64,000 nucleotides of DNA from a virus. Its lineage: Duplodnaviria > Caudoviricetes. The number at the start of each line of letters is the position of its first letter. Position 1 is the stretch's first letter. Of this stretch, positions 32,935-47,092 are shown piece after piece. The notes under the pieces are model-generated. The model searched no databases. It had not been told where the DNA came from and saw nothing but the letters and a program-made list of their open reading frames with translations. Location of the stretch: the IMG/VR virus record IMGVR_UViG_3300025383_000009; one strand, given 5' to 3'. The translations under genes were made by a program, and so were the position numbers.

Positions 32935-33486
32935 TTAACTATCCATATCGTACTGTTGACCAGAGGCGTAATTAGCATCTTTAGCGTAGTCAGTTGGGTT
33001 ATCTCTTTCATTTAAGAGTTCTCTAACACGGTCGATACCAGTAGACGGCGTTAAGTTGTCCGTGATCTCGATTTGACGAGGTTTCTTAGATTCAGGGATA
33101 ACATTCTCAAGAGCGATACGTAAGATGCCATCTTTAAATTCAGCACCACGCACTTCGACCGTATCAGCCAACTTGATTGACTTAGTGAACGAACGCGTTC
33201 CGATACCTTTGTGGAGGTATTGTACATTGCCATCATCAGGATTCTTTTGTCCTTTGATGATCAATAAGCCTTCTTCTAAAGTGATAGTTACCTCTTGCTT
33301 ATTGAAACCAGCGATAGCCAATTCAACGATATATTCGTAATCGTCTAGCTTAATAATGTTGTGAGGTGGGAATGCTTGGTTGTTGTTTAGTGGTGCTGCG
33401 AGCATCTCATCAATCTCTCTTAGCATACTTTCAAAACCAATAGTTTGTGGCCAGATAGGGCCGAATGATACATTTGTAGTTCGCAT
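32935..33486 (-). CDS. hsp20: Small heat-shock protein (IbpA/Hsp20)
   Basis: FPPHNII, VELAIAGF, YLHKGIGTRSF, AEFKDGIL. Confidence 0.95.
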   Translation of the reverse strand: MRTTNVSFGPIWPQTIGFESMLREIDEMLAAPLNNNQAFPPHNIIKLDDYEYIVELAIAGFNKQEVTITLEEGLLIIKGQKNPDDGNVQYLHKGIGTRSFTKSIKLADTVEVRGAEFKDGILRIALENVIPESKKPRQIEITDNLTPSTGIDRVRELLNERDNPTDYAKDANYASGQQYDMDS

Positions 33487-33565
33487 ATTTTTCTCCTTAG
33501 TTAAGCGAGTTTAACAAAATCCTGCCCCCGAAGGCTGCAGGTTTAGGCAGTTTCCTACCTAAATT
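33487..33565 (-). ncRNA. ROSE-like RNA thermometer in the hsp20 leader
   Basis: CUCGCUU-aacu-AAGGAG hairpin with bulged G opposite the SD (33493-33509); upstream cUUCGg hairpin. Confidence 0.65.
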
Positions 33566-33573
33566 TATTTATA
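33566..33573 (-). promoter_or_regulatory. Late promoter TATAAATA
   Basis: Exact motif upstream of the hsp20 leader. Confidence 0.7.
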
Positions 33574-33669
33574 ATACGAAGGAATACTTTTTTAAGTTTT
33601 TGTTTACGAGTTAATGGTGCAGGAGGACTACCGATACAGCATACTCTGTCCCATTCTCGTTGAGTATAA

Positions 33670-33906
33670 TTAGGCTGCATCATCTATGATGTCTTGTAGT
33701 GCTTGGTTGATTGGCTTATAGCCATAGTAGTGGAGCTTCTCTGACTTGCGGTCTAGAAAGTCTCGACGTTTTTCAATATCTCTTGCTCTATAGGCAGCTT
33801 CAAGGATCATCGTATAACGGTTACCTTCACGAGTCTTTTCATGTGCTGCAAGTACTGCTGCTACGTCTACTCTTGGTAAATCAGCCTTCTTTTTGACTTG
33901 TTGCAT
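33670..33906 (-). CDS. rpoZ: RNA polymerase omega subunit-like protein
   Basis: PRVDV...GNRYTMILEAAYRARDI...KPINQALQDI vs RpoZ ARVTV...GNRFDLVLVAARRARQM...KTTVIALREI; GGAGG RBS before MQQVKK. Confidence 0.75.
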   Translation of the reverse strand: MQQVKKKADLPRVDVAAVLAAHEKTREGNRYTMILEAAYRARDIEKRRDFLDRKSEKLHYYGYKPINQALQDIIDDAA

Positions 33907-34081
33907 TCCACTGTCCTCCATAATAACGTTCAAGTTGACCTACATTATTTAATCTTTGATCACCGTCTTGTGGTGTGTCAAGCTTAACTGACCAGTCAAT
34001 CGCATCAAAGTTCTTATCAAATTCTTTGGTGGCAGTCTTAGATAAGATGCTGTCACCGGTGATATCATTCTTTGCTGCCAT
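33881..34081 (-). CDS. Small conserved phage protein
   Basis: MAAKNDITGDSILSK...FDKNFDAI. Confidence 0.65.
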   Translation of the reverse strand: MAAKNDITGDSILSKTATKEFDKNFDAIDWSVKLDTPQDGDQRLNNVGQLERYYGGQWNATSQKEG

Positions 34082-34146
34082 TATTTTGGCAACTTATCTT
34101 TTTTTGGACGACCTTTGCTTTCTTTTTTCTTATCACGGTTTCCCAT
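34081..34146 (-). CDS. 21-aa highly basic peptide missing from ORF track
   Basis: AAGGAG RBS; MGNRDKKKESKGRPKKDKLPK*; stop abuts the next start. Confidence 0.65.
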   Translation of the reverse strand: MGNRDKKKESKGRPKKDKLPK

Positions 34147-34156
34147 AATTTTCTCC

Positions 34157-34426
34157 TTAATATAATTTTTTAGGTGGTTGACTTGATGCTACTTTTTTCA
34201 ACCAACGTTTCTTCGCCTGACTCTTTGCTTTCTTACGAGCTACACATGGCTTTTCATACTCCATACGTTCTCTTATTTCAATCAGAAGCCCTGAGTCTTC
34301 TACTTTGTTTCTAAACTTACGAAAAGCTTTTTCAAATTGGCCTTCTTGTACGTCTACAAATAACCCTTGTTTAGAGTCACTTTGTTTTGGCCTAGGTTTA
34401 CGATTAAATTCAGCCATTAGTAACAA
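34157..34426 (-). CDS. rpsU: 30S ribosomal protein bS21
   Basis: FEKAFRKFRNKVEDSGLL.EIRERMEYEKP..ARKK. Confidence 0.9.
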   Translation of the reverse strand: MLLMAEFNRKPRPKQSDSKQGLFVDVQEGQFEKAFRKFRNKVEDSGLLIEIRERMEYEKPCVARKKAKSQAKKRWLKKVASSQPPKKLY

Positions 34427-34725
34427 GTTCTCGTTCTAGTCACGTTACCATATTGATCTACTGACTCAACCCATGCTGTACAGTTTTGATATACAGTTGG
34501 AGCTTGTTGATAGATCACTGTAGGTGCTGGTTGTACATAACGTGGTTGCGCTAGTTCGTAACCGATAACTCCACCAATTAAAGCTGGAGCAACCCAATTT
34601 ACACCACCTCCATGATAATACCCACCATGGTAACCACCATAATAGCCGCCATATCCGCCATGATAACCTGCGAATGCTGAGGTTGATGCTGTCGCTAATG
34701 CTAATACTGCTATAAGTTTTTTCAT
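34417..34725 (-). CDS. Secreted Gly/Tyr-rich protein
   Basis: Signal peptide MKKLIAVLALATASTSAFA; GGYY repeats; ALIGGVIG helix. Confidence 0.65.
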   Translation of the reverse strand: MKKLIAVLALATASTSAFAGYHGGYGGYYGGYHGGYYHGGGVNWVAPALIGGVIGYELAQPRYVQPAPTVIYQQAPTVYQNCTAWVESVDQYGNVTRTRTCY

Positions 34726-34748: not shown

Positions 34749-34777
34749 ATTGTACCATATTTATTAATTATTGTACA
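34749..34777 (-). promoter_or_regulatory. Early promoter TGTACA-N17-TACAAT
   Basis: Preceded by GGGCCTA like other copies; upstream of the secreted protein and rpsU. Confidence 0.65.
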
Positions 34778-35159
34778 TAGGCCCAATTGTAACAATTTGT
34801 AACCACTTTTTAGATCTATTCTTATGCCATGCCTTAATAGATTCAGACATTTTTCTTTTTTGTTCATCTGACATTACAAATGACTTTTTACCTTTAGTTG
34901 CTAAACTCATTTTGCGCTTAGTTTCTTCAGATCTAGGAACTCCTGCTAAACCGCCTTTAGTTCCTTTTTTGCTTCTACTTATCTTTTTCTTAGATTCTTC
35001 AGTATGTTTTTTACCATACCAGTGGCTTTCTTCTTTTGGAAGACCTTTATTCCATGAATCTTCTATTATAATTTCAGAGTTAGCTTCTAGTTCTTCTTTA
35101 GTTATAATCATAGTTTTAAGGGAATTAAACTCTTCTGGAACCGGGGATAAATATGACAT
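34764..35159 (-). mobile_element. NUMOD3-repeat protein lacking a recognisable nuclease domain (homing-endonuclease derivative)
   Basis: YGKKHTEESKKKIS and RSEETKRKMS repeats; AGGAG RBS supports start MSYLSP at 35159. Confidence 0.7.
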
Positions 35160-35226
35160 GCTGGCACTCCTTTTAGTGTTAGAGTCCTTGGAGATTGCCG
35201 TCTCGCGAAGGACATTTTTCATATTA

Positions 35227-35234
35227 TATTTATA
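35227..35234 (-). promoter_or_regulatory. Late promoter TATAAATA
   Basis: Exact motif upstream of the structured leader of the NUMOD3 gene. Confidence 0.65.
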
Positions 35235-45469: not shown

Positions 45470-46539
45470 ACAACCTCCTGATTGATTGCTTCAATGTATA
45501 AGGATTTTACAAAGGTTTTAATAGCTTCCTTATCTCCCTCCGTTTGGATGGAATCAATGTAATTACCAAGAATACTAACAGTATCTTCCAAATTAATTTC
45601 AGCGTCGATGGTGCCTTCATTGAACTCAGAAAGGTCTTCGATGATTTTGACTTCATATGGTTGTTGTTCGTATAGTGTGTTAACAAACCTATCAAACTTA
45701 TAGAGATCGGTTTTATTTATAACCACTAACTTAATGTATTTGTCCTTTATATCTATGGTTGTAAGATCGATTGGCTCTACATCCTTATCATTATACTCGA
45801 TCTTTTCATGTATAGTGAAAGGGTTTTGATGAAACTCTAACTGTCTTGTCTCTGTGTCGAATACTGAGAATCCTTTTGGATCACTAGCATCTTGCCATGT
45901 CATCTCGTATGGAGTGCCAACATACTCGATGTTTTCTTGCTTTGATCTTGTATGGTAGTGACCAGATAATACACGTTCATACTTTGCAAACATCTCATGA
46001 GATAGACCTTCTTCTGAGTGCATACCTCGGTACATCGGGAATCCTGCTATCTCAAAATGACCCAAGCAGAGATCAGATTTACTGCTATCAATAAACTCAA
46101 ATACATCATTCTCATTCTCCTTACAAATCCATGGTATAAGATCGATAGAAGCATTATCTTCGTGCATACGTGTAGGTTTATCGATCACTGTAATATTATC
46201 ATACTCACCAAGTATCAATGATTGTGCATTGACAGCTAGTGATTCTTTCCAAAATATATCGTGGTTACCTAATAGAGTTATTAGTTGGATGCCTCTTGTC
46301 TTTAGTTCATCAAAGAAGTATCGTTTACATTCAGCGAGTGTATTGAAGTTAACAAACTTACGACGGTCGAATAGATCACCTAATTGATAGATGACTTTGA
46401 TTTGATTTTGCTCCATGTATGGGAATAGGAAGTCTCTATAGAACTTCTCCATGTATGTATGGAACTTTAATGAATCACCTCTAACACCGAAGTGTGTATC
46501 GCCTAATACAACAAATTTACTCACCAAATTCATCCTCAA
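45466..46539 (-). CDS. gp47: Recombination endonuclease nuclease subunit (Mre11/SbcD-like)
   Basis: GDTHFG, LGDLFD, GNHD, SGHYH. Confidence 0.96.
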   Translation of the reverse strand: MRMNLVSKFVVLGDTHFGVRGDSLKFHTYMEKFYRDFLFPYMEQNQIKVIYQLGDLFDRRKFVNFNTLAECKRYFFDELKTRGIQLITLLGNHDIFWKESLAVNAQSLILGEYDNITVIDKPTRMHEDNASIDLIPWICKENENDVFEFIDSSKSDLCLGHFEIAGFPMYRGMHSEEGLSHEMFAKYERVLSGHYHTRSKQENIEYVGTPYEMTWQDASDPKGFSVFDTETRQLEFHQNPFTIHEKIEYNDKDVEPIDLTTIDIKDKYIKLVVINKTDLYKFDRFVNTLYEQQPYEVKIIEDLSEFNEGTIDAEINLEDTVSILGNYIDSIQTEGDKEAIKTFVKSLYIEAINQEVV

Positions 46540-47092
46540 TAAAAGTGTCTAATGTAATAGTGTCGTCTTTTTTCTTTTTCTTCTTTTTCTTCATACGCTC
46601 TTCAAACCCTTCATCGAACGTACCATGTTGTTGCATAAACCCGATGTAGGAGTTTTGAAAATCTTCATCGTTATCTGAACCTTGTGTTTCAAAGGATTCT
46701 ACTGTTACGTCTCTAATTAGTTTACCACGGATATATGATTGTTTCTTTTCTTTTTCTATACGTCTAAGGAATGCATAGTAGATTATCTGTGTAAAGTAAC
46801 TGAAAGGATTAGATGATTTTTCAGGATCAAAGTTATCAAAGTACATGATACAGTTCTCGATGCCGTCTAGGATCATGTCATCTTTATAGGAATAGTTGAT
46901 GAAGTTTGGTCTATTAGCAAGCTTGGTAGCTATCTTAAGTATACACTCACCAAGGTAGTTTGATATCTGGGGTTTTGGATCTCCACATGCCTCTGCTTCA
47001 GCAACCTGCTTCTTATACTTCTTAACTGCTTCAAGGAAGTCTGGATTGTTTACGTAGTGGACTGGTTTTTTCTCAGCCATGATGTGTTTCAC
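46517..47092 (-). CDS. gp55: Late-transcription sigma factor
   Basis: HYVNN..FL, NFINYSYKDDMILDG.ENC, NPFSYFTQIIYYAFLRRI.KEK. Confidence 0.97.
   Translation of the reverse strand: MKHIMAEKKPVHYVNNPDFLEAVKKYKKQVAEAEACGDPKPQISNYLGECILKIATKLANRPNFINYSYKDDMILDGIENCIMYFDNFDPEKSSNPFSYFTQIIYYAFLRRIEKEKKQSYIRGKLIRDVTVESFETQGSDNDEDFQNSYIGFMQQHGTFDEGFEERMKKKKKKKKDDTITLDTFIEDEFGE

Follow-up and report, generated by a model that had tools for sequence, protein, structure and literature searches.

A small gene of an uncultured freshwater phage was found to encode a genuine, diverged homolog of the omega subunit (RpoZ) of bacterial RNA polymerase (RNAP), and this identification is well supported. The window analysed, a stretch of 64,000 nucleotides, is part of the 160-kb genome of a T4-like myovirus, estimated to be 99% complete, with all genes on the minus strand. 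It is likely, in our assessment, that this diverged homolog is expressed early or mid infection, that it occupies the omega site of the host enzyme, and that it is an altered omega rather than a spare copy.

33670..33906, minus strand: omega (RpoZ-like) gene, 78 aa plus stop, called from an RNA_pol_Rpb6 match, a family profile, predicted fold, docking and dN/dS of 0.03-0.10.

The first-pass annotation, which was made from the letters alone, had named this gene a phage-encoded omega homolog with three RpoZ-like blocks. HMM and profile searches and the predicted structure bore out the homology, and all three blocks proved real by alignment to cellular omegas. The first, P-R-V-D-V-A-A-V, aligned with A-R-V-T-V-Q-D-A of E. 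coli omega, starting at omega residue 2; the second, G-N-R-Y-x-x-I-L-E-A-A-x-R-A-R, aligned with G-N-R-F-x-x-V-L-V-A-A-R-R-A-R; and the third, K-P-I-N-Q-A-L-Q-D-I, aligned with the third helix of omegas. In the HMM search that had been proposed as a check, Pfam RNA_pol_Rpb6 (PF01192) matched the window protein with an E-value of 1.4e-5 and 25.4 bits, which is 0.6 bits short of the curated cut-off of 26. The score against the rpoZ equivalog model NCBIfam TIGR00690 was 15.1 bits (E 0.018) and did not reach the cut-off of 23.6, and the protein is therefore named a diverged homolog and not an equivalog. PF01192 was matched by 16 of 22 close relatives at E <= 0.01, and dozens of members of the wider family bear a precomputed match to it. 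When a profile of 34 relatives was searched against the PDB, 32 of the 37 matches were omega chains (best E 4.2e-5), and the alignment to these omegas began at omega residue 2. The phage family is approximately 30% identical to cellular omegas. A word-index search with E. coli omega returned only near-identical enterobacterial sequences among the best 120.

The start of the gene was assigned from the following features and from their conservation among relatives.

33670-33933, minus strand: longest open frame at omega.
33907..33921, minus strand: ribosome-binding region; its GGAGG (33915-33919) precedes the ATG at 33906 by 8 nt.

Codon 6 of the longer (83-aa) frame was ATG, GTG or TTG in all relatives examined (approximately 20 distinct), and a GGAG was present 8 nt upstream of this codon in every one of them, extended to GGAGG in the window. 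The pattern ATG-(G/A)AG-GAx-xxx-GGx-(ATG/GTG/TTG) was kept across these relatives. This conserved codon and its upstream GGAG make the ATG at 33906 the most likely omega start, with a predicted product of 78 aa, as delimited in the first-pass annotation. Given the same conservation, the in-frame ATG at 33921 (83 aa) is a less likely start, and the TTG at 33933 was dropped. Residue numbers in the 83-aa frame are those of the 78-aa product plus 5. A 42-aa ORF at 33555-33683 was also rejected as a gene, having no family match and spanning the late promoter of hsp20.

The product comprises a 10-residue leader (residues 1-10, M-Q-Q-V-K-K-K-A-D-L), followed by Pro11-Arg12-Val13 and then by three helices. 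Pro11-Arg12-Val13 corresponds to Ala2-Arg3-Val4 of E. coli omega. The codon directly before it is TTA (Leu), which is not a start codon, and at least 10 residues therefore precede the position equivalent to Ala2. The earlier claim that an N-terminal extension makes the MARV-like start internal (LPRV) is thus upheld. A leader of at least 5 residues ahead of the R-V-D motif was present in 117 of the 122 called family proteins. For a few relatives, an ATG was observed exactly before Pro-Arg (M-P-R-I/L-D); a canonical N-terminus is possible in these, and the leader may be dispensable.

The AF2 model of the phage omega had three helices, with a pLDDT of 84.6. A Foldseek search against the PDB gave omega chains for all of the top 42 matches, with weak E-values of 0.4 and above. 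Structural alignment with VIA-align gave a Z of 7.3 to the cyanobacterial omega 8urw_E (rmsd 2.3 A, 64/65 residues) and a Z of 5.8 to E. coli omega, where model residues 16-82 matched omega residues 2-58. Values of Z below 8 are middling for helical proteins, and the weight was placed on the uniform list of omegas and on the near-complete coverage. In a language-model atlas, the phage omega was placed among omega clusters, most of which were viral.

The metagenomic family comprised 57 close clusters, and 15 representatives at the 50% identity level. At least 120 clusters were recovered by profile search at E below 1e-19, and many of these pass PF01192 alone. The phage omegas form their own clusters, which are virus-dominated, and several members had already been named omega by JGI gene calls. 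The gene order ribosomal protein S21, orf66, omega and Hsp20 recurred in approximately 30 viral (T4-like) contigs with omega identity down to about 45%, and this block was always located just downstream of the T4-type gp45-gp44-gp62-regA block. Pairwise dN/dS for omega was 0.03-0.10 against relatives with unsaturated dS. The borderline scores of the single sequence could be taken as a sign of chance resemblance, or of a host gene that was captured and persists as a non-functional remnant. However, profile, fold and docking all converge on omega, and the low dN/dS and the synteny, kept across phages to about 45% identity, also speak against this explanation, which is refuted in practice by the conservation data and which we regard as extremely improbable.

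Among curated and deposited phage sequences, relatives were sought in several ways. There was no family matching phage omega in PHROGs, no tblastn match to the window protein or to a distant family member among 50,697 deposited phage genomes (INPHARED), and no megablast match to the locus in the same genomes. Scans of prokaryote genomes with the omega alignment and with the phage S21 found no relative. Other genomic settings of the family were also observed. A distant member (L037:3926-4174) was located in a different phage context with homing endonucleases, a phosphoesterase and a MazG-like nucleotide pyrophosphohydrolase; neither S21 nor Hsp20 was close by. In another T4-like lineage (L005:6418-7630 and L006:5219-6431), the genes after omega encoded an Hc1-like histone-type protein and Fe-S cluster assembly proteins (IscA-like, NifU-like).

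The T4-like character of the genome was evident in the window. The DNA polymerase was 54% identical to cyanomyophage polymerases, and the other T4-type genes were a gp41-type helicase, ligase, gp46, a UvsW-type helicase, portal, tail sheath and RegA. The gp55 context in which the first-pass annotation had set the omega was confirmed by a match to phrog_234.

46517..47092, minus strand: gp55-type late sigma factor (phrog_234, E 1.1e-59).

No beta or beta-prime gene (PF00562, PF00623) was found in the 99% complete 160-kb genome, by searches that matched 14 of 14 control genomes. A search for the T7-type RNAP family matched none of the control genomes, and is thus uninformative. With a gp55 and no beta or beta-prime of its own, the phage therefore depends on the host core enzyme.

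The omega gene is the last in a compact set of genes, and the elements of this region were as follows.

34749..34777, minus strand: promoter TGTACA-N17-TACAAT, where a TG precedes the -10 element; the window has 8 sites of this kind.
34417..34725, minus strand: orf102, which opens the operon and encodes a Gly/Tyr-rich protein behind a signal peptide; the stop codon overlaps with the start of S21.
34157..34417, minus strand: ribosomal protein S21, 86 aa (Pfam PF01165, E 8.7e-15).
34081..34146, minus strand: highly basic micro-ORF of 21 codons behind a strong ribosome-binding site (AAGGAG); the stop codon overlaps with the start of orf66 (TAATG).
33881..34081, minus strand: orf66, 66 aa, conserved; its last 26 nt overlap the omega start.
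33566..33573, minus strand: T4-type late promoter core TATAAATA, which lies after omega and ahead of hsp20 and marks the next transcription unit.
32935..33486, minus strand: Hsp20, small heat-shock protein (Pfam PF00011, E 1.2e-15), the conserved downstream neighbour.
35227-35234, minus strand: late promoter, before the inserted NUMOD3 endonuclease gene.
34764-35222, minus strand: NUMOD3-motif gene, homing-endonuclease-like, behind the late promoter and between pqqA and the S21-omega operon.

The promoter at 34749-34777, with its TGTACA of early type, is likely to start the transcript of orf102, S21, the micro-ORF, orf66 and omega. The stops and starts of the five genes after it touch or overlap. 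Eight sites of this promoter class were present in the window (21499-49952, minus strand), compared with 0.2 expected by chance. The class consists of TGTACATTAA, followed 17 nt later by (T)GGTATAAT, and is phage-specific. The unusual extended -35 box might be the binding site of a phage activator, as an analogue of a middle promoter. There was no T4-type late promoter directly before omega, the nearest being those at 35227-35234 and 33566-33573. Judged from this arrangement of sites, omega would be made early or mid infection along with S21.

S21 was linked to omega in most of the related loci, and orf66 was upstream of omega in nearly all of them, with the overlap with the omega start conserved. 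Translational coupling of the two genes is therefore probable, and the steady position of orf66, overlapping the omega start, makes its product a candidate partner of omega. No Pfam or PHROG match was found for orf66, and orf102 had no family match in searches that included Pfam and PHROG. The orf102 product carries G-Y-H-G-G-Y repeats and two Cys near its end, and is variable among relatives. Between S21 and orf66, the micro-ORF encodes the peptide M-G-N-R-D-K-K-K-E-S-K-G-R-P-K-K-D-K-L-P-K, which was near-identical across the close clade and across relatives whose omegas differ by up to 30%. This could be a ribosome- or RNA-binding peptide, or its conservation could reflect an RNA element. 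Downstream of omega, at 33515-33573, a hairpin rich in GC and closed by a UUCG loop, and then a T-run, came after TATAAATA, just before the hsp20 ribosome-binding site; the hairpin may serve both to terminate transcription of the omega operon and as a structured leader of hsp20. The NUMOD3 gene was present in the nearest relatives (L008, L009) and absent from most others (e.g. L010, L012), and this patchy presence therefore resembles a recent mobile insertion.

Modelling on RNAP had been another of the checks proposed for the omega assignment, and the phage omega was placed in the omega site. The complex was predicted for the phage protein and E. coli beta-prime in two fragments (340-931 and 1135-1407), used as a stand-in for host beta-prime, and gave an ipSAE of 0.78, the best control being 0.00. 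The docking mark applied is reached by 58 of 80 solved complexes and by 2 of 110 mismatched pairs. The three docking runs had at least 91% of contacts in common, and the partner pLDDT was at least 75. The modelled contacts on beta-prime (364, 387-388, 417-419, 474-488, 613-615, 910-912 and 1360-1368) correspond to the classical omega site, namely region D (approximately 474-488), the dock and core-helix positions 417-419 and 613-615, and the C-terminal tail at 1360-1368. The docking pass may come partly from the model's memory of many solved RNAP structures, and is to be read as likeness and not as binding. Apart from this caveat, 14 positions were invariant or near-invariant in the family, and 11 of them were residues of the modelled interface (hypergeometric p 9e-5); selection has therefore kept the residues that face beta-prime. 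On this model, binding of the phage omega to host beta-prime is probable, and the phage probably puts its own omega into the host enzyme.

The conserved charged motif of helix 2 (stretch 51-67) was mostly outside the modelled beta-prime interface. This might indicate that the omega fold acts mainly off the polymerase, as a decoy or adaptor that sequesters a host factor docking on omega or pairs with the orf66 product. The orf66-omega overlap kept in nearly all loci would suit such a role, as would the known service of omega as a docking point for the gene-transfer-agent regulator GafA (PMC9638019). However, the most conserved residues of the phage protein are those that contact beta-prime, and the docking model was confident and specific relative to the controls; an action mainly off the polymerase is accordingly rated as quite improbable.

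The altered N-terminus of the phage omega was considered in relation to ppGpp. In ppGpp site 1 of E. coli, the ligand is contacted by Ala2 and Arg3 of omega and by Arg417 and Lys615 of beta-prime; most of the contacts to the 5'-diphosphate come from Ala2, Arg3 and Arg417, with Lys615 on the other side (PMC13192712). The free Met-Ala-Arg N-terminus of proteobacterial omegas with site 1 is absent from the phage protein, in which the Arg is kept and 10 residues precede Pro-Arg. This residue, Arg17 in the 83-aa frame and equivalent to E. coli Arg3, was invariant in the close clade. The modelled interface has it next to positions 417-419 and 613-615 of beta-prime, which belong to ppGpp site 1. The leader was not placed by the docking model. 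No TraR/DksA-type or MazG gene was found in the phage genome (99% complete, 160 kb). The most likely effect of the phage omega would be to modify or disable ppGpp site 1; with the leader unplaced and with no TraR/DksA or MazG partner gene, this is an effect that we infer. A blunted stringent response or an RNAP retuned for gp55 transcription, as suggested in the first-pass annotation, is likewise a conjecture.

Compared with proteobacterial RpoZ (10ma_K, 6wmu_E), the phage protein has in common the R-V-x-V strand, the G-N-R-[FY]...A-A-x-R-A-R helix and the third helix, with approximately 29-31% identity over 51 superposed residues and the same predicted site on beta-prime. It differs in the 10-residue leader that replaces the free Met-Ala-Arg end, and in being encoded by a phage without any other core subunit. 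Unlike that of cellular omegas, helix 2 of the phage protein is longer and carries the conserved charged motif K/R-R-D-F-L-D-R-K-x-E-K-L, and unlike E. coli omega the protein stops after helix 3, with no acidic C-terminal tail. The short omegas of cyanobacteria and Firmicutes (8urw_E, 8x6f_F) were the best match in structure (Z 7.3) and in sequence (E 4.2e-5), and share with the phage omega a Y-x-x-x-K-P...A-L-x-E-I block and a similar length. The N-terminal block of the phage protein, in contrast to theirs, looks proteobacterial, with R-V-x-V directly before helix 1.

With the beta-prime contacts kept and a leader and a charged helix-2 extension added, the protein is therefore read as an altered omega. 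It could also be a plain spare, an ordinary omega which, through the long infection of a host that grows slowly, maintains the folding of beta-prime and the stability of RNAP and leaves regulation unchanged. Its predicted co-transcription with S21 and its position next to Hsp20, both of them components or helpers of the host machinery, would be consistent with such a function, as would the conservation of precisely those residues that contact beta-prime and the lack of any other ppGpp-related gene. A spare, however, would be expected to stay host-like, and the phage omegas are only about 30% identical to cellular omegas and fall into virus-dominated clusters of their own. Moreover, the leader and the charged helix-2 extension are specific to the family and under strong purifying selection, and the phage makes no beta-prime in need of chaperoning. 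These conserved differences and the low identity argue for a specialised omega and not for a spare, an explanation that we consider unlikely. The specialisation of an altered omega might consist in lost or changed ppGpp control, in altered pausing or sigma use, or in a docking surface, for example for the orf66 product.

Omega is a textbook family, and a few phage proteins are already tagged omega automatically in public databases. One of these, TrEMBL A0A6J5T9F2 ('RNA polymerase, subunit omega/K/RPB6', uncultured Caudovirales phage), had the same fold (TM 0.74-0.76, rmsd 1.7 A) and 36% identity; this entry and several JGI gene calls belong to the same metagenomic family, and their names come from automatic annotation only. 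No description or study of a phage-encoded omega was found in the literature searched, including papers on pelagimyophages, an OM43 myophage, Lake Baikal, freshwater viromes and viral ribosomal proteins.

Giant eukaryotic viruses (Nucleocytoviricota) encode homologs of Rpb6/RpoK, as one subunit of a complete viral polymerase. The phage omega is likewise a virus-encoded member of the omega/Rpb6 superfamily, but the large polymerase subunits are not in the same genome, and the phage omega must therefore act on the host enzyme. Remodelling of host RNAP by T4 involves gp55, gp33, AsiA, MotA, RpbA and Alc, together with ADP-ribosylation by Alt and Mod; these are phage-specific proteins on the exterior of RNAP, or enzymes that modify alpha. 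The phage omega would similarly serve a T4-type phage in reprogramming the core of the host RNAP, and differs from these factors in being a homolog of a core subunit. A parallel in kind is the phage-encoded S21 described by Mizuno et al. 2019 (PMC6375957), a report that does not mention omega. Omega resembles S21, its companion in the operon here, in that the phage carries its own version of a subunit which is the smallest in a host machine for gene expression and only loosely bound to it; the two machines are different.

Under the reading that we prefer, an altered omega acting in the host enzyme, the protein would be produced early or mid infection from the final gene of an operon whose genes are tightly coupled, and would bind host beta-prime in the normal omega site, as the model predicts. 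There it would displace the host omega, or fill RNAP that is without omega. It would be a changed part and not a spare one, with the residues contacting beta-prime kept and the leader and helix-2 extension added. A modified or disabled ppGpp site 1 would be the likely consequence; RNAP might also, or instead, gain a new surface on which a phage factor docks. A more general proposal is put forward tentatively: aquatic T4-like phages of a widespread group may swap a core subunit of the host RNAP for one of their own, and the leader over the ppGpp contact and the new, conserved charged helix surface may render the enzyme deaf to the starvation alarm, or may provide a docking point for the phage (for orf66 or late-transcription factors).

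Phage reprogramming of RNAP is known from add-on proteins and from chemical modification, and replacement of a core subunit is undescribed in the searchable literature. Takeover of the polymerase by an omega swap, if true, would be a mode undescribed for any phage. There may also be a practical consequence, as rpoZ has served in metagenomes as a marker taken to be purely bacterial (PMC10134851) and phage copies of omega could contaminate bacterial marker counts based on it. The linkage of omega with the S21 of the phage is suggestive of a coordinated kit for editing the transcription machine as well as the translation machine. If the phage omega does enter the host RNAP, it would offer a handle on the role of omega and on the working of ppGpp site 1, and on how transcription is kept up, at a time when the host would stop it, by phages whose freshwater and marine bacterial hosts grow slowly and are nutrient-limited.
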